This document shows, in pieces, positions 2,330 to 59,266 of a DNA stretch of 64,000 nt. Under the pieces are notes generated by a model. It had not been told where the DNA came from and did no database searches. It saw nothing but the letters and a program-made list of their open reading frames with translations. The DNA is from Botryllus schlosseri. Lineage: Eukaryota. The first letter of the stretch is position 1, and each line of letters opens with the position of its first letter. The DNA is taken from NCBI GenBank assembly GCA_051294905.1, contig CM119372.1, positions 21,144,001 to 21,208,000 of the forward strand, written 5' to 3'. A program made the position numbers and the translations under genes.

Positions 2330-2359
2330 ATAACTTCGAACTAGTATAATAACTAGATT

Positions 2360-14401: not shown

Positions 14402-14946
14402 CTCTAAAGTCTAAATTATTTGTATCGTCAAAAAAGAAATTATTAAATTCATTGTGAAATTGCAAGGCTGACCAAAATTAGATTATTATGTTCGCGAAGA
14501 TTTGGATGTTTATGACTAAAATATCCATTCCGACGCATTGGTGTAGCCAGGGGTAGCTACCATAGGCGCCTACTTACGACTACGAGGTGGCACAGCCACC
14601 TCGTCACCATATTTGCGAGGTGGCGGCCACCTCGTACAAGATGCTCAAACGCCCAAGTGATTTGTGACCAGTAATTGGTAATCGGGCGAATTGATGCGAC
14701 CTCGTTAGAGACGTCTTCGACATCGATACGCGCTTGTGCCAGGCGCATAGCCACGGAGGTCGAACACCCGCCTCTATTTGAAACGCCAAACCCCGTCATT
14801 TTGAAATGAACATTTGAACTCTAATATTCAGTTGCAGTTCCATCAATGTGTTATTTGCGTTCCGCGCGGCCGATTTGCGAGAAACGTATTGTCAATCAAC
14901 GAGAAGAGTCTGTGATGATCTCCCGCTGAGATGGTAGCGAAATTAG

Positions 14947-15906
14947 TAGGGATGGTGTGAACGCGAGGTTCACGTTCGCGTTCTGTGTGTGAACCTCGGA
15001 AATTTAGAGGTTCGCGTTCACAACAGAACCTTGGTAGGTTCTGCACTGTGAACCTTTTCCATATATTACAATTTTCACTCCAATATGACATTTTTGGTTC
15101 GAATTTATTGCATTTCAACTGCGGGCCACTCTATGCATGACGATGGCAGCATAAAAAAATCAATACAAAACGAGCATGCACCTTGACGATCTCAAAGATT
15201 TTACTTGCTTTGTTACAAAAGTTTTCTCGAAATATCCAGCTTTCCGTCTGTGAATATTTAGTGATAGGCACTACATGTAGTCAGCTAATGATGCTTACTT
15301 ATTCAACCAATCAATGAGATTGATATCGTTTTTTGATGTAAAAAATCTAGCAGGCGTACGGGTCAATCTTGACTTCATATGTTTACCGTATCAATAAAAC
15401 CAAATCCGTGCGATTGAGGTGTTGACTGACAGCTGTATAACTTGTGGGATAGCCTAATATCTGTAGCAAGTATGGAAACCTGTTTTACACTCTGCCCAAT
15501 ATCGATGTAGCAATACTCAGACGCCGAAGGCATTGTCCGGTCTTGTCAGGCCCGTTAAGGCTTATAAGCTTATATTCGCTGGCAACTACACGTCGAAATT
15601 GTTGGCAAAGCGACGGATGAAATTGATTTTATTGGAGTATTGTATAATTTGATTGCCTCAATTGATACATTTAGCGACGTTTAAAACGCCAATATGTACT
15701 TCAGCATTGTGTCATTATGTGGCCCGAGTCGTCGCTAGCTATCGTGTACATTATTATAGGCTATCACTTCATTGAAATATAGGGTTGGAATCAGCAATAT
15801 GACGTCACGTGACGTCATGAGGTTCACGTTCGCGTTCACACAGAACCTTTCAAAAAGGTTCGCGTTCACACGAACCTAAACCTTTCAGAGGTTCACACCA
15901 TCCCTA
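14947..15906. mobile_element. hAT-type MITE (TAGGGATGGTGTGAAC termini), copy 1
   Basis: 16-bp TIRs; TSD GAAATTAG; GTGAAC/GTTCAC subterminal repeats; inverted homolog at 58115-59084. Confidence 0.9.
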
Positions 15907-16414
15907 GAAATTAGGTCATTCATTCCTGTGCGCGTGGCAATCGTCGATAGCCTGATTTGTCGCGTCTCGATCAGACCTGGTTCCGTTGGCTTGTACAATT
16001 GCACAATCGCATCTGCATTGGCGGCTTCGGCCTGGTGTGCACGATATCATCGTTGGCCTTCACAATAGCATCTGCAATAGACTTGTTGCGAAAGATATCA
16101 TTGCTGTTCTAACTATCGCGTCTCGGGCCTAGCATGCTTTGCCTAGGGTTGCCATACGTCCGGAATTTCACTGTTCAAACTTGCGTCCGGGAGGAAATTC
16201 TAAAATGTGCCTAAATGTCCGGAATTTTGAAGGCTTGAAGTTACATCGGTTATACCCTATGGTGCGGCCAAGATCAGTGCTTTTCTGGGCGGAAGGGGGC
16301 TGAAGAACTGTTGTTTCGGACCTGATTAAAACACACAGCCAGATAGCCGCACCGATTTAACAGTATATAGCAGGCCTGTCAAATACAATCCAGACACGGC
16401 CCGCCAGTCGATTT

Positions 16415-17885
16415 CAATCAATCAATCAGGTTTATTAATATTTTCATCGTTTCAAAACATCGCAAGACTGCGATACAAAGAAAAGATAGGAAGGTGTCGA
16501 AACAATTTGGAGTAGCCTTTAAGATCAGACACCCACCTTAGCCTAGGCCAGGGGTCACCAACACGCGGCCCGCGGGCCGCATGCGGCCCACGAGGTCATA
16601 TTTTGCGGCCCGCGAATTGATTTGAGATTTTGGAAGAAAGCTAAGAAAACCATTTTGAAATGCTGAAGTTTACAACAGTTTCAACATATTGTTGTTGTTG
16701 TTGTTTCAAAATAAGCTATTTTCCTGTGCCCAGCATCACTATTCGTCATAGCTAAAACGGCTTTGGCGACGGAAACAGCATTGCAACGAGAGAGAATAAT
16801 CAGCTGATATGAATGGGCTGGGCATATTTCCTTAACGTGCAATGGCCAAACACTGCCAAGAATGAGACGCTTGGAGAACGGCATATAGTGCAGTGGTGTG
16901 CACCTCTAGTAGCGTGAAATCATCTGAAAGGGGCGCGGAGCTGCGATGAATTGAAAATTTTTCCGCGCTCGGCGCGAGTTACATGACATTCATATTTTGT
17001 GTGTAATCCGGAATTCTTATTGTAGAATTCTCTCATCAACAGTCATAACTTTCCATGCCATCAAACTATCCTTTGGGGTTGCTAGCATTCTGGTTGCATT
17101 TTGTGATATGACGATACGGGGAGAGCGAAATTTTTCAATATCATAAAGAGGGGCGTGTCTAAAAAAGTTTGAGAAACACTGGCGTAGGGCTTCCCCACAA
17201 GATCGAGCTTTACGTGGAGGTGGTCTTTCAGCTAGTAACGTATCTCGCTAGCCCTAATATCGATTCCTTAGTCGCTGAAAAGCGTTTCCATGTATCGTGC
17301 ACAGCTCAGAGTTCAAAATAAAATGAAATTGATGATAAATTTTTTTGTTGTATTTGTATTCCTTTAATAGAATATTACTTCTTTTGCGTATGTTAGGTAG
17401 TACGGCGTTGTACTGACGTAGAGTTTTAAAACGCGGTTGCCTGGTTTATATCGATATTGAATTCATGCGGCCCGCGGCCGCTACGAAATGTGAAAAGTGG
17501 CCCGCGACCCGTTTTGAGTTGGCGACCCCTGGCCTAGGCGAAATAAATAAGAGGCATGCACACTGACTGAAAAGTAATCCAGAGAATATAAGACGCAAGC
17601 GACAAAATGAGGTGGCATGTGGCGGAGGGCGAGGTCGATGTTAGGTCGTGTTCCGGTAATCCTGAAGACTGACTAGTATTCATTTAGAAGAAATTGCTTG
17701 TATTTCGACTTGAATGCGGACATGCTCGACGACTGTCGGATAGCCGGCGAGATGCTGTTCCACAATTGGGGTCCGGCATACTTGATAGAGCAATGCGTTC
17801 TCTTGTATTCAGTCCTGATCATATGGTAGTTGTTCTTTGAAGGCCCGTGAAGAAATCTAAGATTGCTGACTCTAGCAAGTAGCAA
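16415..17885 (-). mobile_element. 5'-truncated CR1/L2-group LINE 3' end, split by a MITE
   Basis: ORF2 C-terminus SIKYAGPQLWNSISPAIRQSSSMSAFKSKYKQFLL (17673-17885, minus strand), 3' UTR and (TGAT)n tail. An uninterrupted copy lies at ~63600-64000. Confidence 0.75.
16549..17531. mobile_element. hAT Charlie-like MITE
   Basis: TIRs CAGGGGTCACCAAC / GTTGGCGACCCCTG; TSD GCCTAGGC; GGCCCGC subterminal motifs. The empty site is visible at ~63730. Confidence 0.9.
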
Positions 17886-18832: not shown

Positions 18833-19211
18833 ATGAAAACGATCGTAATTCGTTCGCAGGGATTGTCAAAAGGTGCAAATTGAGCTATGCGAAAGGTGCC
18901 GAGCTTGATTCATATTGATGCATACCAGGAGGTATTCAATTTTCGACAGCATAAGCATTCGTCCGCATCATGGGATGAAAATGCGACACTAATCCTCTGT
19001 TTAATCGAACAGTACGTTTGAGAAAATATCGTGGTATGGCACACTCCCCCATATTACAGGGCCCGTAGTTTAGTCGAAGGGCAATACAGAGAAGTTGTAA
19101 AAAAGGATACTGTGTGAACACTTTGCGCGATTAGCAAACGTGAATAAAAAATATGGTGGTTCGTAAAAATGCCATATTGTGAGTAGTTATATAGATCGGT
19201 CGCGATTCGTA

Positions 19212-19445
19212 ATGGGCGCTTATGGGCGCGGTCGCATGCGGCTGGAAAACCGGGGGTGGCATGCGGCTCTTATTTCTTATGGGCGCGGTGGCATGCGGCT
19301 ATTGCGTCTTATGGGTGCGGTGGCAAGCGGCTCTTATGTCTTATGGCGGCGGTCGCAAGCGGCTGGGAAACCCGGGGTGGCAAGCGGCTCTTTTGTCTTA
19401 TGGCGGCGGTGGCATGCGGCTATTGTGTCTTGTGGTCGCACGGTA
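19212..19445. repeat. GC-rich ~31-bp subterminal tandem repeats of element A (mirror at ~42402-42635)
   Basis: Unit approximately TCTTATGGGCGCGGTGGCATGCGGCT(ATTGCG). Confidence 0.85.
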
Positions 19446-20122
19446 ACCCTTGTCAGCATAGGGATAGCTCGCACGCGGCTTCGTTGTTGGCATGTCGTAC
19501 TTCGTGTTGAATATGTATCAAGTAAATAGTCATGTGATTGGTCCTTAGGTAATGTGTATATTCCAAATTACGGCGAGTACGACAATGATATATCGTTATT
19601 CTTATGGACGCGGCGATGATTCGTACTTTCGAGTATCTCTCGCGCGGTGTTGAATATGTACGAGTCACCAACAATAACCGCGCGGACGGAAACGTGGTTT
19701 GTTGTGAGGATTAAGCAGTGCGTGCGACCTATATTTCGAATGACCTGTGCGCTGAATTATTTCTCGTCCAGCCGCTACTATCGATTATTACACTATTTCA
19801 TTCAGTGCGAAATAGTTTGCTAAATCTAGGAATCACTTCCAAGGTAATATTTTGGTAATTAGTTTACCGCAGAGCCAGCGTAGACGGCGATTCGAATATC
19901 AACAATAACCGCGTTCACAAACTAACACTTCAAAAATGTGTGAAATAGTTTGCAAAACCCCGCAATCGCTGACAAGATAACACATCAGGCATAGCCATCT
20001 CTCGTGGTGTGGATTTACAGAGGTAGGAATCACGCACAAGTAATAGTTTGTCACGGAGCCGGCGTAGACGGCGATTCGGTTACCAACAATCAGTAAGTCG
20101 CGAGTAGTGTAGTCGATCGCTC

Positions 20123-20360
20123 TGGGGGTGGCAGGGGCTCTTATGGGCGGGGTGGTGAGCGGCTGGAAAACCGGGGGTGGTGAGCGGCTCTTATTTCTTA
20201 TGGCGGGGGTGGTGAGCGGCTATTGCGTCTTATGGCGGGGGTGGTGAGCGGCTCTTATTTCTTATGGCGGGGGTCGTGAGCGGCTAGAAAACCGGGGGTG
20301 GTGAGCGGCTTTTATGTCTTATGGCGGGGGTCGTGAGCGGCTATTGTGTCTTGTGGTCGA
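20123..20360. repeat. GC-rich ~31-bp subterminal tandem repeats of element B (mirror at ~32841-33078)
   Basis: Unit approximately TCTTATGGCGGGGGTGGTGAGCGGCT(CTTATT). Confidence 0.85.
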
Positions 20361-21727
20361 ACGGTAACCCTTTTCAGTATAGGGATAGCTCGCACGCGGC
20401 TTCGTTGTTAGCATGTCGTACTTCGTGTTGAATATGTATCAAGTAAATAGTCATGTGATTGGTCCTTAGGTAACGTGTATATTCCAAATTACGGCGAGTA
20501 CGACATTGATATATCGTTATTCTTATGGATGCGGCGATGATTCGTACTTTCAGGCATCTCGCGACCGGTAACCCTTTTCGGTATATGAATCGCTCAACCG
20601 GTGCTAGTATAGCCATCTCTCGACCGGTAACCCTTTTCGGTATATGAATCGCTCAACCGGTGTCGCGGTGGTAATTCATACTTTCGGGTATATGCATCTC
20701 TCGACCGGTGTTGAATATGTATCAAGTAAATAGTCACGTGAATGAATCTTTGTTAATGTGTATATCGGGAAAACTCGCGGTCGTGACTCGCCTTTTTTGC
20801 TATAGGTGATCGCCGTTGTTTCTTATGGGTGCGCTCGCATGTCGCACTTTCAGGTATAGGCATCTCTCGCACATCGCAGACTCGCCATGTGTTCTTATGG
20901 GTGCCGCCGTGAATCGCCCTTTCGGTATAGACATCTCTCGCACGTCGTACTTTCGGGTATAGGCATCACTAAACAGGAAATTCACTAATCCGCAGCGCAT
21001 TGTGCGATTTTGAAAACCAGACGTTGGCGGTTGTATTTTGGACCTGTGTGACCCACTAAATACGTCCGTTTTGGAAATTCGGAGCGCGCACTATCGTATC
21101 GATTATTCCACTAATCCAGTCGGTGCTATTACGTTCGGCAGTATTCAGTATTCAGCAGCGTCACGAAAAGCGAGCAACAAATAACCGCGCTCGTAAATTG
21201 ACACTTCAAAAAGTGTAAAATAGATTGCAAATCCCGCGATCACTAACAAGATAATGTCTCGAACATAACCATTTTTAGTGACTTGGTGTTAAAGACATAC
21301 CGATCGCTCACAAGGTAATATTTCCGCAATAAGTTTGTCACAGAGCCGGCGCAGACGGTGATTCATAAACCAACAATTTGACACTTTCTGGTGGTCGCTA
21401 TATGTTTTGACACTTCGAACAGTGGCTGACTTTAGTTGCGCGATAAGAATTATGAGAATATTCAATCAATGTATCAATTTGCCAACTCGAAATGAAACTT
21501 ACTACACAGCTCAAGTTGATTCGTATCTGAATGTGTTAATTCGGTACAATTCTAATTATTTCGAGAAATCTTTTCGTGATCTTTTGATTCGACCGTAACT
21601 CGAATATTACTGACACCGACTTTCAGCCACATTGAATTATTCGCACACCAGCGCCGCTGTTTTCACAACTATAACTCTACAAGAATCAAGAATCACAAGT
21701 ATGTGCATTATACAGTTATTGTCTTTA

Positions 21728-22003
21728 TCAACACGAAATCAAACTCTTAACAAAAACACGCATCTTATCACTCGTCAACTCTATCATGAAAATCCTCGAG
21801 TCCTTATCATCAAAAATGTTATAGCGCGGCGTCGGAATCCATTCGTGGGATGTACTAAAGGTAAATCCAAATAATCCAGAATGAAATATTTGGACTTTGA
21901 CATTGTGTGAATTGAAATATGTTTGACAAACATGACTACCAACTTTCACCCAGTCACATTTCGAGATTATACGCACATTGATTTGAAACAAGTAATGAAA
22001 CAT
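21728..22003 (-). CDS. Hypothetical 91-aa element-encoded protein (identical mirror copy at 31198-31473 +)
   Basis: Element A carries a frameshifted homolog (~41060-41310 +) that keeps KCDWIKVGSHVC and SRIFMIELTSDKM. Confidence 0.35.
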   Translation of the reverse strand: MFHYLFQINVRIISKCDWVKVGSHVCQTYFNSHNVKVQIFHSGLFGFTFSTSHEWIPTPRYNIFDDKDSRIFMIELTSDKMRVFVKSLISC

Positions 22004-24699
22004 TACAACTCTATTCGCGACCTGTCTTTACGTTTGTCAAAGAGAGTTTCAGAAATATTATCACTATGACATCTCAACATTTTAACATCTCGCCATGCAC
22101 AAACGAGTAAAATACAAAAACCTTGGTAAGTCAATCCGTTTGTAACTCACCAAACCAAAACAAAAAGTGTCCGTATGAAAAGTAGACAAGACTACGCGAG
22201 TAATCACTACAACCCACAAACATACCAACTCAGTTGTATCCATATCCCATATTTTTTATTCAACTGCAAGATGAAGTAATTACTACTTGGCGCGCGGTTT
22301 GAGATTAACACATTACATTTGAGTATACGAGATTTGAATGTCTGACCAACGTAGTTGAGAATTCTTACAATCGAACGCAGGTGTTATATTGAAAATTTTC
22401 ACGAATTGACACATTGATTTTGACATATGAGATTTTGTAATAGTCGATCATGACTTGATTATTAAATTATGACAATATTAGACCAGGTTTGTGTTGAAGG
22501 TTATTACGATACCAACAAACTTTTCAGAAACATTGTTATTGACATATCGATTTGTAAAACTAGATTAACATATCTGAAATGTTTTGATTGGGAAGATTAA
22601 GCCGTGTTCGTAAAAACCACGCAGCGTATTGTGGAAATCAGGAAATAATTTACAAATGTAATTGTCTCCAGTAACCAAGACTAAAGATGAAACAACAATT
22701 TTCTTTGTTGAACAATAACCGGTACAATACTTTATCATCGTAATCAGCAGTGAGAAATGAAACACTTTCGCACATTATCCTGTGTCAAGATATCACACTA
22801 GGTGAATTGACATATCGCCGCTTGATTAATGCTTAATCCGTTCGCACCATTTCACATACTTTGATCATTACAAAAGTAAATTGGAATATGTTTGCTAGAT
22901 GCATTCAATTCAGTTAGAAATGTCTGGTGCACAACAATCGCAATATCAAAAAAGTACTTGCTACACTGTTATTTGCTAAACGTGTTTTGCATTGTTGTTC
23001 ATTTGTAGTATTGATTGTTCTTGAACCCTCAAATAATAATTCCCGACATGAAACCAAGCCACTGAAAGTCGTTACCATCACGAAGAAACAATGTGTACGA
23101 TGTTTGTCAAATGTATCCTACCTGGCCACCAGAAAACAATTTTCACTCAGTCGAAATGAAACCAATGTGACGGTCTCCATTCGATATTTTGTTTGTGTCA
23201 AATACTTAACAATGATCACATTTGAGTGGTTGAGCTTTACATCATCAAGCTGTTATTTGTAAATCAAGATTTCGGTAAACTTGTAAATGTATCGTTTAAC
23301 TAACCAACATTTAGTGATTGTTGAACATACGACTTCGAAATACTGCGTTGATCGTAATTTCCATCATCGTGATAATCGAAGTACATTTCTTTCGAATTCG
23401 TAACAACCGGCGTTTCTACGACATGATAAATTTTTGACAAGTTATGCTTAGAAGATTGGTTGCATATCGCGAAAAATAATATACCACTCATATTGATACT
23501 GTTACTCCATTGATCGATATTTTCAAACGAGTAAAATTTATTACTTGAGTTTCTCCGCTTAATGTAAATGCAAACTCAGCCGTCTTTTAACATCACAAAG
23601 GCATTGATAAAAAGTAAGCAATCAAACACAGCACTTTGTACGACGCTAATTATTGTTCCACACATCTCATTTCATACTAAGTGTATACGAAAGATATTCA
23701 TGTTACAGGAAAATATTCGCTCATGCTACAAACCTGTACGATGATTGGCGGTGTAAGTCCAGCACAATTGTGGTATCCATACGAGTTTAGTTAACACAAT
23801 TTACGACACCGAGGTCGCCTCATCTTTCGTAAGACAACAAACCAAGGCTTCAGGATATGTCCATGTCATAACAATAAATCAGCTACTCCAACAACAGAGT
23901 ACATATGTTTTCTAGCACGGTGCTTACATCTTACACACAAATCGACCTACTTTGCTAACGAAAAGTGCTGAGTCATCACATGGTTGTCATCACAACAATA
24001 ACAACTAAAACATACTATCATACAAAATGGCCGTTATAGTTTGCACACCAACGATACATCGTACAAGTAGCAAGTCTCGAGAATCCAGTTATTCAAAAAA
24101 CGTGAAAGTGTTTCTACGCCAAGTCGGTATGTTGACGAAAGCGTATATTGTAATATCATGATCGATTTACATTCGTTGGTCACAAAATGTCACTACTCTA
24201 AATAATTATTTTTCACTCAAAGCCTACTTGTCACCATTCGTTTCATCAAGCACGAGTTCAAGAAACCTGCTACGACATGAATTGTTATTTTTATGTTGTG
24301 TAAATAGGTAATAATTAATTTTAGTAACACTATATCAACATCATCGAGTTGCGCGAATAGATTTACATGTGGTCTTGTGGTTTTAATCGAAGTATACAGC
24401 ACGGTCTAATGTAGAGTCATCTCTATTGTACAGCAACTCGGAAATCGAAATGCATGCATTAACATTTAAACAGCGATCGCGTTTCGTGACGCGAAAAATA
24501 TGTTCACCACCGCGATACTCTGCACTGGGCGTGCAAATCCTTTTCACACTCGTAATAGTATACCAACGACTACCGGCGACAACGTTTAACAATACCAACG
24601 ACACTAAACATACGATACCTACCCAAGTAAAATTTCCATTTTCACCTGGAGGTCAGCCGTTACCTGACTAAAAATACCATTGTCCTTTGGAGATTTATC

Positions 24700-25370
24700 G
24701 TTTACCCAGTGTAACAATCCCCTTTTCACTTGGAAATCTATTTTTGCCCTGGATAACAAACCCCTTTTCACTTGGAAATCTATTTTTGCCCTGGATAACA
24801 AACCTTTTTCACTTGGAAATATATTTTTTCTCTTGGTAACAAACCTTTTTCACTTGGAAATATATTTTTTCTCTGGTTAACAAACCTTTTTCACTTGGAA
24901 ATATATTTTTTCTCTGGTTAACAAACCTTTTTCACTTGGAAATATATTTTTTCTCTGGTTAACAAACCTTTTTCACTTGGAAATATATTTTTTCTCTGGT
25001 TAACAAACCTTTTTTCACTTGGAAATATATTTTTTCTCTGGTTAACAAACCTTTTTCACTTGGAAATATATTTTTTCTCTGGGCAACAAACCTTTTTCCC
25101 CGAGTAACAAACCTTTTTCCCTGAGCAACAAGCCATTTTCACTTGGTGGGTCGTCGTTTACCTGAGTAAAAATATCATTTTCCTTTGGAGATCTGGCGTT
25201 TACCCAGTGTAACAATACATTTTCTCTTGGTCATCTAGCTTTTCCTAGAGTAACTAATCATTTCTCCTGGGTAACAAACCCTTTTCGTCTGGAAAACTAT
25301 CATTTACCCGAGTACCAATACCGTTTTCACTTGGAAATCTATCTTTTCCCTGGGTAACAATATCATTTTC
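24700..25370. repeat. 41-bp minisatellite in element B arm (mirror at ~27830-28500)
   Basis: Unit AACAAACCTTTTTCACTTGGAAATATATTTTTTCTCTGGTT at 41-bp period; the array degenerates at its edges. Confidence 0.9.
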
Positions 25371-26163
25371 GTTTTGAAAACTGACAACCACACCGGACAA
25401 TTTGATATTTTTGTATATTGTTACAACGGGTAGTGACAAAATATACACCAACAACGACTCCGATACATTTGTCTAATCAAATATTCACTTGCTCTGATGC
25501 ATCCCATCAAAATCATTGGTTACTCACATACAATAACAATGTGCTGTTGTACATCGACATGTATGTTTTCGGAATTGGCGAATAAAGGGGTTTCCGATAT
25601 GTCTGTGATGTCCGGGTTCGTGCTTTGGATTTTCCAGAGTCAAAATGTCTGAATAAAACACCTCCTTGACTTTGGTAACTGGTTGATACACGGATAATGG
25701 TGTTCGGAAAACGGATGAATTTATGTTTCCCATCGCGCTAATAACTCTGGGTTACTTGTGAGTTTCCTCAGGTCTGTTTACTATATTGTGTCTTTACTGG
25801 TCAATACATGTCGCTCCAGTCAGCTGCAACCGGATCACTAATATGAGAAAGTGTGTGGGCCTGATCCGGATATTCACTCATGAACCAACGACCAATATTC
25901 AAGTAAACATGTTACAGACCGTGTTTTGTCTCCATGAAAAATACCAATGCATACACCATCACATACAAGTAACGTCACGATTGTTCACAAGTATTCGCGT
26001 AAACGAGGTGTACATACAATGTGTCGGTGTACAAACATCATGGAAAACAAATTCATGTTCTCAAGTATCATCATGCGACGACTCTGTACATTCAATGTGG
26101 GCATAGAGGACTTGGAGACATGATACAATGGACAGTGCATTATGCATACCGATATATTCTCAG

Positions 26164-26439
26164 TCAAATATGCGAACCATACACAACCATATACCCTGAT
26201 TTTCGCTGAATATCCACAACACCAACAAATCTGTACATTTCTTTTCCCTTGACCTCGACGATAGAGTTGTCATCCCAATGTACCAATCGAGTGTATGGTT
26301 CATCAGGTGTAAAATCCAAATCAAATGTCACCAAGGTATCGTTTTTCATTTTCAATATTTCCACCGCTGCATCTTGTCTGTGTCGTAAAACCACGGTGTG
26401 GGGCCAGAGGAATCTATGGACAGTTACGCGTAGTCCCAT
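26164..26439 (-). CDS. Hypothetical 91-aa protein in the spacer of element B
   Basis: ATG-to-stop ORF; 44 of 69 residues identical, without gaps, to 39335-39550 (-) in element A, with many synonymous changes. Confidence 0.65.
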   Translation of the reverse strand: MGLRVTVHRFLWPHTVVLRHRQDAAVEILKMKNDTLVTFDLDFTPDEPYTRLVHWDDNSIVEVKGKEMYRFVGVVDIQRKSGYMVVYGSHI

Positions 26440-29400
26440 ATTTACTCGTGGATATGGTCAGGTAACGACAACGTTTTCTCAATGGGCTGTGTGGGTACAA
26501 CGTTTCAATACGTAGCTGGATCAACTAGACCAAAAGTTTCCAACCGCGATTTATGTTGACCTGTCGAGTTACGAGATAGCACCCTCTTGCGGTGTGATTA
26601 ACACGAAATCCACCTTCAGCTCGCAGAGACACACCCTGGATTACATTATCTAATCGTAATCGAACTCGAGATTCACACACACACACACAGAGTCCCTGTT
26701 TACGATTTCAATCCGGAGTCACTGCTCACGATGTTTAGCTGGAGTCGTTATGTGGGAGTAGCGACATCCGACATATTCATCGCGTGAAAGATTGATAACG
26801 GTGGTAATCACCAAATACATAAAACCAGGTGAAACACTGCGGTCTCAGCGAAAAAGTTAGCAGGTTATGACCAACGATACGCAGGGGTTGAGCGAGTTAC
26901 GCAACCCGATTAAGTCGAGGTCTGGATCACGATGCAAGTCTACATGAGAATCCGAAAAATCTTGCAAAATCAAGGTGTGAACCCGTGAAAGGGTTGTACT
27001 CGTGTGAGATTCATTTTTCACAAGTTGGGTTGAGGCGGCTCATACTAAGATCGTGTTACGTCCAAATATGGCTGCTTGTCTGTCCCCAAGTCATCTATGC
27101 CCACATTGAATGTACAGAGTCGTCGCATGATGATACTTGAGAACATGAATTTGTTTTCCATGATGTTTGTACACCGACATATTGTATGTACACCTCGTTT
27201 ACGCGAATACTTGTGAACAATCGTGACGTTACTTGTATGTGATGGTGTATGCATTGGTATTTTTCATGGAGACAAAACACGGTCTGTAACATGTTTACTT
27301 GAATATTGGTCGTTGGTTCATGAGTGAATATCCGGATCAGGCCCACACACTTTCTCATATTAGTGATCCGGTTGCAGCTGACTGGAGCGACATGTATTGA
27401 CCAGTAAAGACACAATATAGTAAACAGACCTGAGGAAACTCACAAGTAACCCAGAGTTATTAGCGCGATGGGAAACATAAATTCATCCGTTTTCCGAACA
27501 CCATTATCCGTGTATCAACCAGTTACCAAAGTCAAGGAGGTGTTTTATTCAGACATTTTGACTCTGGAAAATCCAAAGCACGAACCCGGACATCACAGAC
27601 ATATCGGAAACCCCTTTATTCGCCAATTCCGAAAACATACATGTCGATGTACAACAGCACATTGTTATTGTATGTGAGTAACCAATGATTTTGATGGGAT
27701 GCATCAGAGCAAGTGAATATTTGATTAGACAAATGTATCGGAGTCGTTGTTGGTGTATATTTTGTCACTACCCGTTGTAACAATATACAAAAATATCAAA
27801 TTGTCCGGTGTGGTTGTCAGTTTTCAAAACGAAAATGATATTGTTACCCAGGGAAAAGATAGATTTCCAAGTGAAAACGGTATTGGTACTCGGGTAAATG
27901 ATAGTTTTCCAGACGAAAAGGGTTTGTTACCCAGGAGAAATGATTAGTTACTCTAGGAAAAGCTAGATGACCAAGAGAAAATGTATTGTTACACTGGGTA
28001 AACGCCAGATCTCCAAAGGAAAATGATATTTTTACTCAGGTAAACGACGACCCACCAAGTGAAAATGGCTTGTTGCTCAGGGAAAAAGGTTTGTTACTCG
28101 GGGAAAAAGGTTTGTTGCCCAGAGAAAAAATATATTTCCAAGTGAAAAAGGTTTGTTAACCAGAGAAAAAATATATTTCCAAGTGAAAAAAGGTTTGTTA
28201 ACCAGAGAAAAAATATATTTCCAAGTGAAAAAGGTTTGTTAACCAGAGAAAAAATATATTTCCAAGTGAAAAAGGTTTGTTAACCAGAGAAAAAATATAT
28301 TTCCAAGTGAAAAAGGTTTGTTAACCAGAGAAAAAATATATTTCCAAGTGAAAAAGGTTTGTTACCAAGAGAAAAAATATATTTCCAAGTGAAAAAGGTT
28401 TGTTATCCAGGGCAAAAATAGATTTCCAAGTGAAAAGGGGTTTGTTATCCAGGGCAAAAATAGATTTCCAAGTGAAAAGGGGATTGTTACACTGGGTAAA
28501 CGATAAATCTCCAAAGGACAATGGTATTTTTAGTCAGGTAACGGCTGACCTCCAGGTGAAAATGGAAATTTTACTTGGGTAGGTATCGTATGTTTAGTGT
28601 CGTTGGTATTGTTAAACGTTGTCGCCGGTAGTCGTTGGTATACTATTACGAGTGTGAAAAGGATTTGCACGCCCAGTGCAGAGTATCGCGGTGGTGAACA
28701 TATTTTTCGCGTCACGAAACGCGATCGCTGTTTAAATGTTAATGCATGCATTTCGATTTCCGAGTTGCTGTACAATAGAGATGACTCTACATTAGACCGT
28801 GCTGTATACTTCGATTAAAACCACAAGACCACATGTAAATCTATTCGCGCAACTCGATGATGTTGATATAGTGTTACTAAAATTAATTATTACCTATTTA
28901 CACAACATAAAAATAACAATTCATGTCGTAGCAGGTTTCTTGAACTCGTGCTTGATGAAACGAATGGTGACAAGTAGGCTTTGAGTGAAAAATAATTATT
29001 TAGAGTAGTGACATTTTGTGACCAACGAATGTAAATCGATCATGATATTACAATATACGCTTTCGTCAACATACCGACTTGGCGTAGAAACACTTTCACG
29101 TTTTTTGAATAACTGGATTCTCGAGACTTGCTACTTGTACGATGTATCGTTGGTGTGCAAACTATAACGGCCATTTTGTATGATAGTATGTTTTAGTTGT
29201 TATTGTTGTGATGACAACCATGTGATGACTCAGCACTTTTCGTTAGCAAAGTAGGTCGATTTGTGTGTAAGATGTAAGCACCGTGCTAGAAAACATATGT
29301 ACTCTGTTGTTGGAGTAGCTGATTTATTGTTATGACATGGACATATCCTGAAGCCTTGGTTTGTTGTCTTACGAAAGATGAGGCGACCTCGGTGTCGTAA

Positions 29401-32400
29401 ATTGTGTTAACTAAACTCGTATGGATACCACAATTGTGCTGGACTTACACCGCCAATCATCGTACAGGTTTGTAGCATGAGCGAATATTTTCCTGTAACA
29501 TGAATATCTTTCGTATACACTTAGTATGAAATGAGATGTGTGGAACAATAATTAGCGTCGTACAAAGTGCTGTGTTTGATTGCTTACTTTTTATCAATGC
29601 CTTTGTGATGTTAAAAGACGGCTGAGTTTGCATTTACATTAAGCGGAGAAACTCAAGTAATAAATTTTACTCGTTTGAAAATATCGATCAATGGAGTAAC
29701 AGTATCAATATGAGTGGTATATTATTTTTCGCGATATGCAACCAATCTTCTAAGCATAACTTGTCAAAAATTTATCATGTCGTAGAAACGCCGGTTGTTA
29801 CGAATTCGAAAGAAATGTACTTCGATTATCACGATGATGGAAATTACGATCAACGCAGTATTTCGAAGTCGTATGTTCAACAATCACTAAATGTTGGTTA
29901 GTTAAACGATACATTTACAAGTTTACCGAAATCTTGATTTACAAATAACAGCTTGATGATGTAAAGCTCAACCACTCAAATGTGATCATTGTTAAGTATT
30001 TGACACAAACAAAATATCGAATGGAGACCGTCACATTGGTTTCATTTCGACTGAGTGAAAATTGTTTTCTGGTGGCCAGGTAGGATACATTTGACAAACA
30101 TCGTACACATTGTTTCTTCGTGATGGTAACGACTTTCAGTGGCTTGGTTTCATGTCGGGAATTATTATTTGAGGGTTCAAGAACAATCAATACTACAAAT
30201 GAACAACAATGCAAAACACGTTTAGCAAATAACAGTGTAGCAAGTACTTTTTTGATATTGCGATTGTTGTGCACCAGACATTTCTAACTGAATTGAATGC
30301 ATCTAGCAAACATATTCCAATTTACTTTTGTAATGATCAAAGTATGTGAAATGGTGCGAACGGATTAAGCATTAATCAAGCGGCGATATGTCAATTCACC
30401 TAGTGTGATATCTTGACACAGGATAATGTGCGAAAGTGTTTCATTTCTCACTGCTGATTACGATGATAAAGTATTGTACCGGTTATTGTTCAACAAAGAA
30501 AATTGTTGTTTCATCTTTAGTCTTGGTTACTGGAGACAATTACATTTGTAAATTATTTCCTGATTTCCACAATACGCTGCGTGGTTTTTACGAACACGGC
30601 TTAATCTTCCCAATCAAAACATTTCAGATATGTTAATCTAGTTTTACAAATCGATATGTCAATAACAATGTTTCTGAAAAGTTTGTTGGTATCGTAATAA
30701 CCTTCAACACAAACCTGGTCTAATATTGTCATAATTTAATAATCAAGTCATGATCGACTATTACAAAATCTCATATGTCAAAATCAATGTGTCAATTCGT
30801 GAAAATTTTCAATATAACACCTGCGTTCGATTGTAAGAATTCTCAACTACGTTGGTCAGACATTCAAATCTCGTATACTCAAATGTAATGTGTTAATCTC
30901 AAACCGCGCGCCAAGTAGTAATTACTTCATCTTGCAGTTGAATAAAAAATATGGGATATGGATACAACTGAGTTGGTATGTTTGTGGGTTGTAGTGATTA
31001 CTCGCGTAGTCTTGTCTACTTTTCATACGGACACTTTTTGTTTTGGTTTGGTGAGTTACAAACGGATTGACTTACCAAGGTTTTTGTATTTTACTCGTTT
31101 GTGCATGGCGAGATGTTAAAATGTTGAGATGTCATAGTGATAATATTTCTGAAACTCTCTTTGACAAACGTAAAGACAGGTCGCGAATAGAGTTGTAATG
31201 TTTCATTACTTGTTTCAAATCAATGTGCGTATAATCTCGAAATGTGACTGGGTGAAAGTTGGTAGTCATGTTTGTCAAACATATTTCAATTCACACAATG
31301 TCAAAGTCCAAATATTTCATTCTGGATTATTTGGATTTACCTTTAGTACATCCCACGAATGGATTCCGACGCCGCGCTATAACATTTTTGATGATAAGGA
31401 CTCGAGGATTTTCATGATAGAGTTGACGAGTGATAAGATGCGTGTTTTTGTTAAGAGTTTGATTTCGTGTTGATAAAGACAATAACTGTATAATGCACAT
31501 ACTTGTGATTCTTGATTCTTGTAGAGTTATAGTTGTGAAAACAGCGGCGCTGGTGTGCGAATAATTCAATGTGGCTGAAAGTCGGTGTCAGTAATATTCG
31601 AGTTACGGTCGAATCAAAAGATCACGAAAAGATTTCTCGAAATAATTAGAATTGTACCGAATTAACACATTCAGATACGAATCAACTTGAGCTGTGTAGT
31701 AAGTTTCATTTCGAGTTGGCAAATTGATACATTGATTGAATATTCTCATAATTCTTATCGCGCAACTAAAGTCAGCCACTGTTCGAAGTGTCAAAACATA
31801 TAGCGACCACCAGAAAGTGTCAAATTGTTGGTTTATGAATCACCGTCTGCGCCGGCTCTGTGACAAACTTATTGCGGAAATATTACCTTGTGAGCGATCG
31901 GTATGTCTTTAACACCAAGTCACTAAAAATGGTTATGTTCGAGACATTATCTTGTTAGTGATCGCGGGATTTGCAATCTATTTTACACTTTTTGAAGTGT
32001 CAATTTACGAGCGCGGTTATTTGTTGCTCGCTTTTCGTGACGCTGCTGAATACTGAATACTGCCGAACGTAATAGCACCGACTGGATTAGTGGAATAATC
32101 GATACGATAGTGCGCGCTCCGAATTTCCAAAACGGACGTATTTAGTGGGTCACACAGGTCCAAAATACAACCGCCAACGTCTGGTTTTCAAAATCGCACA
32201 ATGCGCTGCGGATTAGTGAATTTCCTGTTTAGTGATGCCTATACCCGAAAGTACGACGTGCGAGAGATGTCTATACCGAAAGGGCGATTCACGGCGGCAC
32301 CCATAAGAACACATGGCGAGTCTGCGATGTGCGAGAGATGCCTATACCTGAAAGTGCGACATGCGAGCGCACCCATAAGAAACAACGGCGATCACCTATA

Positions 32401-35400
32401 GCAAAAAAGGCGAGTCACGACCGCGAGTTTTCCCGATATACACATTAACAAAGATTCATTCACGTGACTATTTACTTGATACATATTCAACACCGGTCGA
32501 GAGATGCATATACCCGAAAGTATGAATTACCACCGCGACACCGGTTGAGCGATTCATATACCGAAAAGGGTTACCGGTCGAGAGATGGCTATACTAGCAC
32601 CGGTTGAGCGATTCATATACCGAAAAGGGTTACCGGTCGCGAGATGCCTGAAAGTACGAATCATCGCCGCATCCATAAGAATAACGATATATCAATGTCG
32701 TACTCGCCGTAATTTGGAATATACACGTTACCTAAGGACCAATCACATGACTATTTACTTGATACATATTCAACACGAAGTACGACATGCTAACAACGAA
32801 GCCGCGTGCGAGCTATCCCTATACTGAAAAGGGTTACCGTTCGACCACAAGACACAATAGCCGCTCACGACCCCCGCCATAAGACATAAAAGCCGCTCAC
32901 CACCCCCGGTTTTCTAGCCGCTCACGACCCCCGCCATAAGAAATAAGAGCCGCTCACCACCCCCGCCATAAGACGCAATAGCCGCTCACCACCCCCGCCA
33001 TAAGAAATAAGAGCCGCTCACCACCCCCGGTTTTCCAGCCGCTCACCACCCCGCCCATAAGAGCCCCTGCCACCCCCAGAGCGATCGACTACACTACTGT
33101 CGCGAAACTGGATTTCACTGGTAAGATTTAATAAGTAACGAATAACAGAGCCATCGCAGACGGTGATTCGAAAACCAACAATTTGACACTTTCTGGTGGT
33201 CGCTATATGCTTTGACACTTCGGAACGTGGTTGACTTTAGTTGTATGATAAGAATATACAAGTAATGTGTCAATTTGTCAACTTGAAATGAAACTTACTA
33301 CACAAACCGAGTTGATTCGTATTTGAATGTGTTAATTCGGTACAATTCTAATTATTTTGAGAAATCTTTTTAACGTGATCTTGTGAATCGTACGTAACCT
33401 GAATATTACCGACACCGACTTTCAGCCGCATCGAATTATTCACACATTCCACGCCGCTGTTTCACACCTATAGAATCAATGCCAACTAGTTGTATGAAAA
33501 TCAAGAATCACAAGTATGCACATATAATAATTGTATTCATTATTGAGAAATCAAACCCTTAACAAAAACTCACATCTTATCACTTGTCAACTCTATCATG
33601 AAAATCCTCGAACCCGTATTATTAAGAATGTTATAAAACGGCGTCAGAAATCCACTCGCGAGATGTACTAAAGGTAAATCCAGATAATCCTAAATGAAAT
33701 ATTTGGACCTTGACAAACATGACTACCAACTTTGATCCAGTCACATTTCAAGATCATACTTTGAAACAATCCTTGAAACTTACAACTCTATTCACGACTT
33801 AGTTTTCCGTTTATCAAATAGAGTTTCAGCAAATACTATCGCGATATTTTAATGTGTTACTACACACAATAGAATCAATCAATGAAATAGCACCTGTTGT
33901 AAATATTTTTAACTTGACAACCACTTGTGCATACCGCGATCGACTTGTGACGCGATGAGTTAAATCGTAAATCGGAATATTTCAATCTATTTGTCGAAAC
34001 CTTGAACAAACTATCAGGTTATTTTTTTTTTTGTTGTAATCGAGTGAACGGAAATAGTATTACGTCTCAACATTTTAACATCTTCCCATACACAAAAGAG
34101 TAAAATACAAAAAAAGCCCTGTCAAGTCAATCCGTTTGTAACTTACCCAACCAAAGCAAAAAGTATCCTTATGAAAAGTAGACAAGACTACGCGAGTAAT
34201 CACCACAATCCAAAATCCATAGCAAGTTCGGTTGTAGTCATATACCACCAAATCGTCTTTTTATTTGTTCAACTGTAAAAGTCGTTACTATTCTGTAAGA
34301 TAAAGTAATTACTACTCGGTATATTTTATAAACCAAAGTAAATACTACTCGGTGTGTGGTTTGAGATTAACATATTACATTTGAGTATACCCGATTTGAA
34401 TGTCTGACCAACGTAGTTGAGAATTCATTTCTTACAATCAAACGCCGGTGTTACATTGAAAGGTATCATACTGTAAACATAAGGATTGACACATTGATTA
34501 TTAAATTATTCACGATAATTAGACCCGGTGTTGTGGTAAAGGTTATTAGAAAATATCACTTTTAGCATCGAGTACCAGTCGAAGTGGGTGAACAATACTT
34601 AATCCTTTCAGTGACTCGCTGTTGTACGTGCTAAATGTAAAACATTACGAGGTTAAACTCTAAGACTTTGATCAGCACAAGAGCAATTTGGACTATATTT
34701 TCTGGCTACAACCTATTCTATTAGACAAAACTCGAAGCATTAATAAAATCGAAATATGTGCTACACTGAAATCTACAAAATGTGTTCGTATTGTTACTAG
34801 TAGTGATCATGCATTATCATTTGAATCTTCTAAAGTAATTGTAATGATAAAACCAAACTACTCAAAGTCATTACCAACACAAAAAACGATTTCTATGATA
34901 TTCATCAAACGCATCATACCTCAGTATGCAGAAATTATTTGTAGAGTGCATACCAACAAAGAAATCAGGAACACAACCAACACCGAAAATGATAAATGCG
35001 TTTCGTGCTACTATTGATACAAGTTCATTTCTATCAGGTGAAATAAACGCCATCACAAAACTCGGAGCATGCAAAGGTCTTGATTGATATGAATTTCGAT
35101 TTGTGTCTTATGATACCAGCAAGCATTTTAGAAATATTATGATTCGTTAAACCAAAGTCGTATGTCCGATTATTAATTGATTGGAAACTTGATCACGTAC
35201 CTCGATCATTACAGAAGATTATAACACCATTGTCCGACAATCTTTTACAAAAGGATCGAAACCTAGTAACCCAAAGTCGTTGCCGTCGCATAAACAATTT
35301 GTACGACGTTTGATAAATGTACCCTATACTTTGGTGTACTAGAAATATTTGTAAAACACACTCTGGTAAAGAAATCGAAAAGATATCCTACACCTAAATC

Positions 35401-36728
35401 TGATAAAACCATTTTGCACTTTTTGGACGTCAGTAGTATCCATTTGAATTTTTCCATTTCCTCTCGTCAAAGTAGATGTAATCATAGTCGCTAAAGAACT
35501 TACTTGGATGTGTTTGAATTCTAGACATAGTTATGATTTACTCGACGCAAGACCCAAGAACAACCGTAGTTTACAACCGTGCACACATATCCAAAATATC
35601 GCACACTCCGCTATTCCTAAAGTACAAACACCCGATACAAAATATTACTTGTTGTGTTGTTGCGGCATCATCTTCACAATATCACCATTTTGTTTGTGTC
35701 AATTAGTTACTTTGTATGTTTCCCCACAACTCTTACAAATGTACGAAGGATATTAACATCACACTAAGTAATTAACTTTACTCGATATTCTCGCATTACG
35801 AAACTAAAGAATGATTGGTTAGACTCTACAAACTGTTTCGATATCACAAGACCTTTATTGTCTGAATGGGTGTTCATGTATCTTAATAATCAAATAGTTC
35901 AACACAGAACTAGTACTAACAGAAACATCAGAGTTGTTTACACAAAAGTTTGTATATGTGCACAGTATGCGAATACCATGTGTAAGTCCAGCACAATTGC
36001 GGTATCCATCCGAGTTTAGTTAACACAAATTTATTACAACGGAGTCACGTAAACTTTCGCGAAAGAAAAGCATACTCACTCCTAGAGGGTTATGTCAATG
36101 CCATAGCAGTTCCCCAACAACAAAGTACATATGTTTTCTAGTCACGGTCCTTACATCTTTCACATAGATCAATCTACTTTGCTAACGAAAAGTGCTGAGT
36201 CATCACATGATCGCTCTCACAACAAAACAGCTAGTAGATATTATCATTCAAAATATTCCTAACCCTTTACACACCAGTAACAAATCATACAACGAATATG
36301 TTTTGTGGGTCGAATTGTTGTTCAGTGTCAAGTCTACCTGTTGAAACGTACATTAAAACAACACAATCACAATCAAATTAAAACCACGAATCTATTTTCA
36401 TTTCCTCGCAAACTGTCACATACAGAAAAATAAATTTAAGTTCCCAAAACATACTTGTAACCAATCGCTTTCATTAAACACACAACACTATAATAGTATT
36501 TACTTTCTACAACATAGACATTCCGGTGTAGTCAAGAAATATTTTTAATAATCAAAATCATCGACTTCTGTTTACGGTGTTAGTGTGTGCATGTCATATA
36601 TGTGGGCCCGTATTAAAATGGACACGACACGACTGACTGTAAGGAGATAGAAGTCTATCGCATAAATTTACATGTGGTCTTCGCTACGGTTTCAAAAAAC
36701 GAATCATCTATTTTGCATTGATCTAGAC

Positions 36729-37749
36729 CAGGGGTGGGCAAACTTTTGAGCTCGCGGGCCGCATTCAACATCTGAATCCATTCGCGGGCCGCACTATATA
36801 AAATTGGGATTATAAACCAAAATGCAATATTGGTATTGGTGTTGGTATGTCACAACTATAGAGATGAAAGTCGGTTGTCCCGATTCTTAGAACAGGATTT
36901 AAATTTAAATCTGTTAGCAGCGATCTGTTCATAGATTTACTAATTCCACTTTTGATTCGGTTCCAGGACACACAATGCTGACAGCATCATACCCATGGTA
37001 GATTCAAACACGCTTCTACTGTTTGCAGATAAAATATAACTACCCCAATTCTACGCATAGAACGAATCCATAAGCACATCACTAAAATAGTTAAAACTGG
37101 AGAGACGAATCTGAAATCACACTCGTGATCAGAATTATGTCAATCTCGTTTAGGATTTCTGTTATTTTTAGCAGTTAAAACCTTTCAAACTCTGCGGGCC
37201 TTGAGACGGTCGCGCCAGAAATTAAACATAAAACTAATATAGGAAATAGATACCTTAGAACAGTGGATCTCAAACTTTTTAAGACACGCTCTCTTGTGAT
37301 GGTGAACGATTTCACGCCACTTATCGTCATATCGCAAAACGCAACCAGGATGCTATAGAAACCGTAACAGATAATTTGATGGCATTAAAGGGTATACGAC
37401 TGTGGATGAGAGATTTTTAGATACGAAATTCAGACTAAATACAAAGCTAAAATTAGGAATTAGGTGTGAATCGCGCGGAGCGCGAAATTTTTTTTCAGTT
37501 GAGCTGATCTTCGCCCCCCATTCAGATGCTTTCACGCCCTCAAGGGGGCACGCCCCCCAGTTTGAGAACCACTGCCTTAGAATTATGATGGTGAAATATA
37601 CCAAAAAGTTTAATTAGTCCCTGCATTAATTCGATATTTAGTACGCATTTCATCAATATTTTTAATAAGTTTATTTAGACTCTCGCGGGCCGCACAAAAC
37701 GGTGTTGCGGGCCGCATGCGGCCCGCGGGCCGTAGTTTGCCCACCCCTG
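36729..37749. mobile_element. hAT Charlie-like MITE in the spacer of element A
   Basis: TIRs CAGGGGTGGGCAAACT / AGTTTGCCCACCCCTG; TSD ATCTAGAC. Confidence 0.92.
37261..37574. mobile_element. 314-bp hAT MITE nested in the previous MITE
   Basis: TIRs CAGTGGATCTCAAACT / AGTTTGAGAACCACTG; TSD CCTTAGAA. Confidence 0.9.
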
Positions 37750-38069
37750 ATCTAGACCGAGCAAGTTAGTTAATGGCCATGATTGTGTTTGTCATATGCG
37801 AATGATAGGGTTACTGTCAAATCTACATACAACAATCTTCTGACGATCATAATAGCAATTTCATTTTCCACCCCTTCATAATTGTACAACTCGGTAACTA
37901 CGTTTAACAAGACCAATCACACTACCAGCGTTGAACACAAGATACCTACCCAAGTAAAAATATCATTCTAGTTTGGACAACTGACGTTTACCTGTGTAAA
38001 ATTAGCATTTTCACTTGGAGGTCCACTGTTACCTAACTAAAATACCATTGTCCTTTGGAGATTTATCGT

Positions 38070-38470
38070 TTACCCAGTGTAACAATCCCCTTTTCCTTTG
38101 GAAATCTATTTTTTCCCTGGGTAACAAACCTTTTTCACTTGCAAATATATTTTTTCTCTTGGTAACAAACCTTTTTCACTTGGAAATATATTTTTTCTCT
38201 GGGTAACAAACCTTTTTCTCTTGGAAATATATTTTTTCTCTGGGTAACAAACCTTTTTCACTTGGAAATATTTTTTTCCCTGAGCAACAAACCTTTTTCA
38301 CTTGGGAATATATTTTTTCCCTGAGCAACAAACCATTTTCACATGGTGGGTCGTCGTTATACTTAGTAAAAATATCATTTTCCTTTGGAGATCCGGCGTT
38401 TACCAGTGTAACAATACATTTTCTCTTGGTCATCTAGCTTTTCCTAGAGTAACAAAACCATTTTCATTTT
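38070..38470. repeat. Shorter copy of the 41-bp minisatellite in element A spacer
   Basis: Same unit and flanks as 24700-25370, with fewer units. Confidence 0.85.
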
Positions 38471-39334
38471 GAAATCTGACAAACACACCTGACAATTTGG
38501 TATTTGTTGTATTGACGATACTTTGAAATAGATTACAACGAACAGTGACGGAAATATACACGGACTACCGGTTTCAGAGTATACCCCCATCAGTCGTATC
38601 ACATCAATATCATCGGTTAACCACATACAATATGCTCTTGTCCACCGAAATGTATGTTTTGGAAAATTGGACAATATGCTTCGATAGTTCTGTGATGTCC
38701 GGGTTCGTGCTTTGGATTTTCCAGAGTCAAAATGTCTGAATAAAACACCTCCTCGACGATGGTTGGTATGTGGATAACGGGATTCAAAAAACGGTTGGAT
38801 TTATGTCACCCATCGCGATAACAATTCCAGGTCGAGTTTTCCCCCGCATGTTTACTATATTGTGTCTTTATTGGTCAATGTATGTCTCGACATTCAGTTT
38901 GAAATCGGAAACCCTGATAAAGTATGTAATCGGATCCGGATATCAACTCTGAATCGATAAACCAATGAACAATATTCAAAGTAAACATGTTACACCCCGT
39001 GTTTCCACGAAAAAATACCATCCAGGCATACGTCGCGCTTGTTTGCCCACAACAGTATACGCGTAAATGGAGGTGTGTAACATTGCATGCAATGTGTTGG
39101 TATACAAACATCGGGGAGTAAGCCTTCGATCGACAGACATTATCATAGCCGGAATTTTGATACAGATCGAATGTCATCAAGCACACCCGATAACAATGTC
39201 ATACCAATAAGCCACATTGCAATGACTCTGAGTCAATCTGAAGCATGACATACAGACGCACAAACATGGAACCGTAACATGGGTTATTCGCACGACGGCG
39301 AAAGTGAACTGTACAGCATATATCAATAGAGCGT

Positions 39335-39553
39335 TCACAGTCGAATATGCGAGCCATGCACAATCATATACCCAGATTTTCGTTGGATATGTACGAAACC
39401 AATAAATCGATACATTTCTGTTCCTTCTACGTCAATAATACAAGCGGCATTCCAATGCATCGCTCGAATGTAAGGTTCGTCTGGTGTAAAATCCATGTCA
39501 AATAACACCATAGTGTGCCTTCCGTGTTTTATTATTTCCACCGTCGCATCTCC
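39335..39553 (-). pseudogene. Homolog of ORF 26164-26439, 5'-truncated by the arm junction of element A
   Basis: DATVEIIK...FDMDFTPDEPY...EMYRFIGFVHIQRKSGYMIVHGSHI; homology stops at the arm boundary (39554). Confidence 0.65.
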
Positions 39554-42500: not shown

Positions 42501-43514
42501 CCATAAGACATAAGAGCCGCTTGCCACCGCACCCATAAGACGCAATAGCCGCATGCCACCGCGCCCATAAGAAATAAGAGCCGCATGCCACCCCCGGTTT
42601 TCCAGCCGCATGCGACCGCGCCCATAAGCGCCCATTACGAATCGCGACCGATCTATATAACTACTATTGTGTAGCTTTATTTCCGGAAATTAAAGGCATT
42701 ACTACACTTGCTTTTATATTTCAACATGATGTATGTTATCCACACAAAAGAACTGATATCAAATAGAACTCAAAGTATATGATACTTGGAATAGAAAGTG
42801 AAATATATAAATACTACTTCTAAAAGCGGAAAATGTGTTTCATGTCTTTAGTCCAGAAAGTTTCAAAGGTGGTATGCTAAAACAGCTCTAAACCTAAAAA
42901 AAGTCAGAGTCCACTTTTCCAGATTAGGACTGCTAGATAACGATATGATAATTAAATGCTAGATTGCGAAACATCAGTCTCAAACATTATGATGAGCCAT
43001 ATATGCTGTGATGAAATATTTCATGGGCGACGGGCGACAATGCGGTGTGAACAAAACCACGTCAACCCGCTACCTAAACTATATTCACCGATACTTTCGT
43101 GAAATCATACTGGTTACTCCGTATCCACTGAGCGCGAAGCGCGACGAAAATTCCGGGCGTTATTGAACTTTTATGAATATTAAATGTTGATACTCCTTGA
43201 AAACAGCCCCGAAATTCCTCAGGCTATCTTCCTGATTGGAGGATCAAACTACTTCTTCTTGACAAACTGAAAATGGCGAAAAGTAAGTAAGTAGATCAAA
43301 TTTTTTTTTGTTTGTAATACTTTTTCGGCATGAATTTATGGAAATGAAAAATGCACTACGAATAAATATAATCGCGACTTCGGTCGCTACTTCTACAAAG
43401 TAGAAGTGGCGAAAACCGGATCTACTTGAGTAAGTACCCCAAGAGATGAAAACTACTTGAGTACTTCGAAAAAGTAGAAGTACTTCGTTACTGACCACCT
43501 CTCCATATGGCGCC

Positions 43515-59084: not shown

Positions 59085-59266
59085 GTAATTAGTGGATTGC
59101 GCTACGAATAGCAAAAAGTGTTTATGCAAGTAGGTTTACAATACGGTAAGATCTTTCCTTTTAATAGTGTAGTGTCAACCCTAGACGATATCTGCCTGAT
59201 ATCGTTGCCTTCGCACTATACCATTACGGTAGATTGTAAGCAGCACGCATCTTGATGTGTTTTAAG

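Follow-up and report, generated by a model that had tools for sequence, protein, structure and literature searches.

A 13-kb near-perfect palindrome with Polinton/Maverick-type ends and a conserved loop gene in Botryllus schlosseri, probably a helper-dependent satellite

A 64,000-nt stretch of the Botryllus schlosseri genome (assembly GCA_051294905.1, contig CM119372.1, positions 21,144,001-21,208,000 of the forward strand; hereafter the window, in whose positions all coordinates are given) carries an element of 12,996 bp (20103-33098) that is about 93% one palindrome. The locus raises the question of what kind of element has the ends of a Polinton/Maverick transposon and consists almost wholly of its own mirror image. 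The results described below make it probable, in our judgement, that this inner element is one integrated member of a many-copy family of giant palindromes with Polinton/Maverick ends and one conserved small gene, and that it is likely a satellite dependent on a helper, an autonomous Polinton whose enzymes copied and inserted it. A long-lived satellite lineage of Polintons/Mavericks is the best reading of the family as a whole.

A repeat search placed the arms of the inner element at 20103-26120 (+ strand) and 27081-33098 (- strand), 6,018 nt apiece, with a single-copy loop of 960 nt between them (26121-27080); the arms are mismatched at three positions, 26021, 26108 and 26116. The left arm starts with AGTAGT, the right arm ends with ACTACT, and the hexamer GTCGCG directly abuts both ends (20097-20102 and 33099-33104), beyond which the right flank is not a mirror of the left. 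The commonest end motif of vertebrate Mavericks is (AGT)2//(ACT)2, according to the accessible part of PMC8097293. An earlier, sequence-only reading of the window had described the near-perfect palindrome with these arm and spacer lengths, its terminal motifs and its direct repeat, and had taken the ends and the 6-bp duplication to be of Polinton/Maverick type; on all of these points our analysis agrees with it. Two features go beyond that reading, namely the nesting of the palindrome in a related element and a conserved 91-aa open reading frame (ORF) in the loop.

The inner element lies in the left arm of a second, older related element (19182-42665), which has the same AGTAGT//ACTACT ends and its own 6-bp duplication, ATTGTG (19176-19181 and 42666-42671), so that the window holds two independent insertions with different duplications. 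The left arm of this outer element is interrupted 921 bp from its end; the first part, which starts with AGTAGT (19182-20102, + strand), is identical to the outer right arm, and the remainder (33105-35259, + strand) differs from it by four substitutions, a 1-nt indel and a 40-bp deletion. A single-copy centre of 4,291 bp (35260-39550) follows, and then the right arm of 3,115 bp (39551-42665, - strand), which ends with ACTACT. The outer right arm provides an internal control for the insertion, as it keeps the empty target site (41745-41750, - strand), where the two pre-insertion flanks are contiguous through one GTCGCG. We conclude from the single GTCGCG of the empty site that the 13-kb palindrome was inserted whole, with a duplication of six bases, which is what the sequence-only reading had proposed when it spoke of integration as one unit. 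Furthermore, the sequence returns to the empty-site flank after the duplication, which a fold-back artefact would not do.

The arm and loop of the inner element align with the arm and centre of the outer element in colinear blocks of 66-86% identity. The longest gap-free block is the terminal 467 bp (20103-20569, + strand), which includes 32-bp subterminal repeats (20172-20356) and is 86% identical to the outer end; the other arm blocks are broken by many indels. The terminal 467 bp likely hold the cis signals for priming and integration. Within each element the arms are at least 99.8% identical (the outer 40-bp deletion aside), compared with about 70-85% identity to the arms of the other element, and the block identities indicate that the two belong to an old, diversified family. 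The inner arms showed no difference in 5,918 bp, and their three mismatches all fall in the last 100 bp before the loop (P ~5e-6 if differences were uniformly placed). The outer arms carry five scattered differences in about 3,070 bp (P ~0.005 against the inner 0 in 5,918 bp, or P = 0.04 for substitutions alone), and their 40-bp deletion sits between 6-bp microhomologies. These differences fit the nesting order, the arms of the younger element being the more alike.

A 41-bp tandem array with 9.1 copies in the inner left arm (24723-25098, + strand; mirror copy at 28103-28478) is also found in the outer element, with 6.5 copies at 38079-38346. The outer centre is colinear with the inner half of the inner arm, this array included, and runs into the start of the loop, and the outer right arm starts in the middle of the loop gene; this arrangement suggests that the outer element is a one-sided deletion of a longer-armed parent. 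Around the outer loop/right-arm junction (39545-39565) the arm loosely resembles the inner loop gene, with TTTTAC in common, hinting at a deletion guided by microhomology. The idea that the outer element retains sequence of the right end of the inner loop was rejected, given that 1,296 of 2,000 shuffles scored as good. The outer centre also contains two miniature inverted-repeat transposable elements (MITEs), one nested in the other (36729-37749 and 37261-37574), with short inverted ends and an 8-bp duplication each (ATCTAGAC; CCTTAGAA). We take them to be hAT-like from their end motif and duplication length; the inner of the two resembles 16912-17181 at 73%.

Several diverged copies of a subterminal motif of about 75-200 bp were seen in each arm (19832-20090, 21175-21377 and 33108-33182), with a spacing of 184 bp in the outer element, and the inner element is inserted inside that repeated region; the copies are possible protein-binding sites. 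Both elements (19182-42665) are AT-richer than their flanks (37-39% vs 41-44% GC) and CpG-rich (observed/expected 1.2 vs 1.0 in the flanks), and the CpG ratio thus gives no sign of methylation-driven decay.

The inner element showed no trace of the genes by which Polintons are usually known. Its longest stop-to-stop frame is 114 aa, and when its left arm and loop were translated in six frames, with stops read as X, and searched against Pfam (E<=0.01), 0 families matched, none of the six frames giving a polymerase, integrase, capsid, ATPase, protease or superfamily 1 (SF1) helicase gene and none having the length that a capsid, ATPase or protease gene needs; a frame from an LTR (long terminal repeat) retrotransposon of the window, used as a control, matched three families, and heavily frameshifted remnants could escape a scan of this kind. 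For the outer element the Pfam scan covered five longer ORFs and the partial loop protein. No Rfam match was found in 19000-43000, and a bacterial promoter scan, which is not relevant here, gave results at chance level. The statements of the sequence-only reading that the element lacks a long ORF and any pPolB, integrase, ATPase, protease or capsid motif therefore hold.

What the inner element does carry is a small gene in its loop (26164-26439, - strand, ATG to stop), which was found by comparing all frames of at least 35 aa between the two elements and which encodes a 91-aa orphan protein predicted to be all-beta. The outer copy (39335-39550, - strand) has its 5' end cut off by the right arm. 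Between the two copies 68 codons align gap-free, the longest such run outside the terminus among nine inner/outer blocks, with 74% nucleotide and 63% amino-acid identity. The proportions of synonymous (pS) and nonsynonymous (pN) differences over these codons were 0.50 and 0.20 (dN/dS 0.29, Fisher p=0.0003), and the remaining five frames over the alignment contain two to six stops each. By this substitution pattern, the loop ORF is under purifying selection. Protein searches returned homologs in six clusters, with 11 listed members of 90-98 aa and 45-76% identity between clusters. The outer fragment is 89-90% identical to two of them (P0011 and P0014) and 63% identical to the inner protein, from which it follows that full-length genes of the outer subfamily exist.

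Searches with the loop protein gave nothing past the cut-off in Pfam, PHROGs, PDB sequences or Atlas features, and no locus that was confirmed in viral contigs or metagenome contigs; the 7,383 candidates included neither a fused protein nor a longer one, which is weak evidence. A profile search of 1.84 billion representatives recovered the family's own cluster, besides two WD40 matches that were rejected because they add up weak scores of repeats, the best of which is 10 bits. When AlphaFold was run with 12 sequences, one of five models reached a pLDDT (predicted local distance difference test) of 78 and was nearly all beta. Fold searches with this model returned weak HSP20/CS/AMIN-like rows (best Z 5.0, root-mean-square deviation 5.0, 70 aligned; best Foldseek E 0.009 and 0.006), and the Atlas model of the homolog P0013 compared with AMIN gave a TM (template modelling) score of 0.55-0.57, which is below the bar for naming a fold. 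A first model (pLDDT 42) and its herpes nuclear-egress matches were discarded as meaningless. The idea of an OB-fold (oligonucleotide/oligosaccharide-binding) single-strand binding protein was unsupported by the fold lists, absence from which is not exclusion. Among the reads, none of 10 listed indels fell in the loop gene, which is not significant (P=0.17), and in one contig 34 nt of the gene are missing. Nine of the 11 homolog contigs are at most 1.2 kb long; contigs of about 1 kb would match a loop that assembles alone, to which we give little weight, short contigs being usual in that collection.

Public sequencing runs were searched with 25400-27800. Of 24 runs listed, 20 hold the stretch or part of it, and nine, from nine studies, share at least half of its words; runs X6 and X8-X14, with under half of the words shared, are no evidence of habitat. 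We aligned contigs of four runs (X1, X5, X7 and X15, of which X1 may be the source sample) to 25400-27080. The right arm/loop junction, seen as an opposite-strand joint of 26120 and 27080, was present in three of these four runs (X1, X15 and X5, from three studies), and X7 contigs had no more than a loose end at this junction. In X1, 19,554 contigs aligned to 1.7 kb, many of them variants, as a high-copy family would give. In near-identical single contigs the arm was about twice as deep as the loop (308-328 vs 155 in X5, 53-70 vs 25 in X7); halved coverage over the arms, which the sequence-only reading had named as the mark of an assembly artefact, was not found. The X5 and X7 runs are labelled as two other organisms; their arm and loop contigs are near-identical to the window (0-10 differences per 120-400 bp), and these runs also contain loose ends that match the outer subfamily. 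These matches may come from close relatives, mixed samples or transfer.

How could such an element be propagated? The gene set of Polintons includes a retrovirus-like integrase and a protein-primed polymerase, and a racket-like single strand has been put forward as an intermediate of theirs (excerpts of PMC4196379 and PMC11161782). We suggest that the helper's protein-primed polymerase would start at the AGTAGT ends and displace a single strand, which would fold back on itself, leaving a loop of 1 kb at the end of a 6-kb stem, an outsized version of the racket proposed for Polintons. The stem would restore a double-stranded end for the next round of copying, and it would let the arms be corrected against each other, save at the fraying edge of the loop. 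Adenovirus ends are repaired via panhandles, on which our literature search returned nothing. The helper's retrovirus-like integrase would then insert the linear product, and after insertion the arms would diverge as paired LTRs do. Only in the loop is a gene free of pairing with a mirror copy of itself. Replication or packaging of the helper is the likely target of the 91-aa protein, though this role is a guess, and we offer as a speculation that the long arms serve as stuffer for a capsid size limit.

Several points weigh against this reading. The replication steps are deduced from sequence only, and the helper is the main limit on our confidence in a satellite: terminal-motif scans for a helper or relatives gave one chance match without blastn likeness and then none in two further scans of viral contigs, and none of 21 matches in metagenome contigs was like the window. 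The outer element, at 10.5 kb (9.45 kb without its MITEs), is under the 12.7-24.6 kb of intact vertebrate Mavericks, so that either a size rule, if there is one, is not strict or the deletion postdates the insertion. For the loop gene, one opposite-strand frame also gave p=0.02, and its substitutions by codon position (20/10/24) are borderline uneven (p=0.056). Finally, Logan contig depth is not copy number, and a joint in a contig reflects the architecture of the family, not this locus, which no record spans.

A stronger form of the satellite reading can be put forward tentatively, as one that we think less likely than not: a true satellite whose helper is an animal polintovirus, belonging to an old, self-perpetuating lineage in which the 6-kb mirror arms would act as origin, self-repair template and capsid-size stuffer at once, and the loop protein would hijack or dampen the replication or packaging of the helper. 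Packaging by a helper is compatible with the size (13.0 kb) alone.

In its workings the inner element resembles a non-autonomous Polinton, and it falls outside the autonomous family. The N in the name Polinton-1N1_DR presumably stands for non-autonomous. That name appears in PMC9341505, and Polinton-N1A_NV carries a capsid gene (PMC11296320; excerpts of both). Like autonomous Polintons/Mavericks, among which (AG)3//(CT)3 is an alternative end motif, the elements have (AGT)2//(ACT)2 motifs on all four ends in the window and 6-bp duplications, and the 13.0 kb of the inner element is at the low end of the range of intact vertebrate Mavericks. Autonomous members have a gene-rich core between inverted repeats of about 50-1,500 bp; the arms described here measure 6,018 bp in the inner and about 3,100 bp in the outer element, compared with inverted repeats of 46-1,447 bp in vertebrate Mavericks (PMC8097293), 100-1,500 bp in nematode Polintons/Mavericks (10.1101/2023.08.22.554363) and 744 bp in PMC11414722, as given in excerpts of these sources, and the inner element has one orphan gene in place of core genes. 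With non-autonomous Polinton derivatives it shares Polinton ends and footprint without mobility genes, and it is likely mobilised in trans. The polB-less elements of butterflies keep core Polinton genes, and inverted repeats enlarged to about 2 kb with core genes inside them are known as well (both in excerpts of 10.1101/2025.02.07.637071), whereas the inner element is 93% palindrome, with no core gene and a lineage-specific gene in its loop. Transpovirons, too, belong to the wider Polinton network, as linear dependents that lack a capsid and end in inverted repeats (part of PMC5499653); they are about 7 kb long, carry an SF1 helicase and ride giant viruses, and no helicase was detected in the inner element by the Pfam scan.

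A closer likeness in shape is to the snapback genomes of adeno-associated virus (AAV), which are self-complementary and helper-dependent, carry one and the same end at either side and have a loop that is single-stranded (excerpt of PMC8235507). By analogy, the palindrome might be a recent snap-back, or defective, product of an autonomous Polinton, one end of which was copied back, with arms of decayed helper sequence. The asymmetric form of the AAV molecules and the different points at which the inner and outer elements turn back are in keeping with this. We nevertheless consider it unlikely, given that 6 kb of arm contains no trace of a Polinton gene and that the family is old and diverse, with an orphan gene under selection; moreover, the shorter outer arms are explained by a one-sided deletion that cut the loop gene. 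AAV snapbacks differ further in that they depend on parvovirus chemistry and are transient and heterogeneous, with the genes of their parent, whereas the inner element is stable, integrated and diversified and has no recognisable parent genes. The sequence-only reading had called the palindrome a giant fold-back, non-autonomous derivative. The second half of this description stands, the element having Polinton ends without the core genes; it does not look like a simple fold-back of an autonomous Polinton end, but belongs to an old diversified family (blocks of 66-86% identity) in which a small gene of its own is kept under selection. A snap-back may describe the origin of the family, not its present state.

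Foldback (FB) transposons have very long inverted arms, internal tandem repeats and a variable loop, and the long arms with 32-bp and 41-bp tandem units recall them. A transposase, or a Polinton integrase on its own, might accordingly have moved the element in a cut-and-paste manner and without protein-primed copying, while chromosomal gene conversion, by which palindromes can homogenise, kept the arms alike. This we regard as improbable. Foldback elements have other termini, cut-and-paste transposases and longer target duplications, those of Foldback/Mutator type being 7-11 bp, whereas both elements described here have 6-bp duplications and (AGT)2 ends. Gene conversion would have had to leave in the outer arms an uncorrected 13-kb insertion, a 40-bp deletion and substitutions, and the absence of differences away from the loop edge in the younger element fits an identity that was set at insertion. 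Although near-perfect palindromes are a known long-read artefact and no read was seen to span the whole element, a fold-back chimera or mis-resolved repeat is scarcely credible, given that the sequence resumes past the direct 6-bp duplication as the empty site in the outer right arm predicts, that the arms differ at three places, that the arm/loop junction is present in X15 and X5 contigs from studies other than that of the best-matching run, and that the arms have about twice, not half, the depth of the loop.

If the stronger, polintovirus form of the satellite reading is true, the inner element would represent a class of DNA satellite to which nothing described among eukaryotic transposons corresponds, and it would be the first natural reporter of the racket, the single-stranded intermediate of Polintons. 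The copying of Polintons/Mavericks and the formation of their particles in animals are still inferred from gene content, and an abundant, recently active passenger that is nearly all inverted repeat predicts stem-loop single strands, protein-capped linear DNA and an arm identity that is reset at each insertion, as well as a size limit if the element is packaged. The divergence of the arms would serve as a built-in clock for dating insertions, against which the nested pair provides a check, the younger element having the more identical arms, and the 91-aa orphan would be a compact handle on the interaction of helper and satellite. No almost wholly palindromic Polinton-ended element is described in the open-licence literature that we searched, a scope outside which the earliest Polinton papers and Repbase/Dfam lie. 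One survey capped inverted repeats at 2.5 kb (PMC11131425, in part); surveys with such a cap, or that need hallmark genes, miss elements of this kind, which may therefore be widespread.

The rest of the window contains other mobile sequences and one host gene. The LTR retrotransposon that was used as a control (2357-7837), which we presume to be Gypsy-like, is broken, with RVT_1, RT_RNaseH and rve matches in separate frames. Two elements of about 1 kb, 14941-15913 and 58108-59090, are 82% alike, lie in opposite orientation and have inverted ends of about 16 bp each; they probably form a MITE family. A fragment at 62833-63438 (+ strand) matches the endonuclease domain of a non-LTR retrotransposon (PF14529, E 2e-15). 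A BCCIP-like host gene lies about 2 kb beyond the right end of the outer element and was seen as an exon-like frame at 44864-45301 (- strand) that matches BCCIP (Pfam PF13862, E 4e-8).

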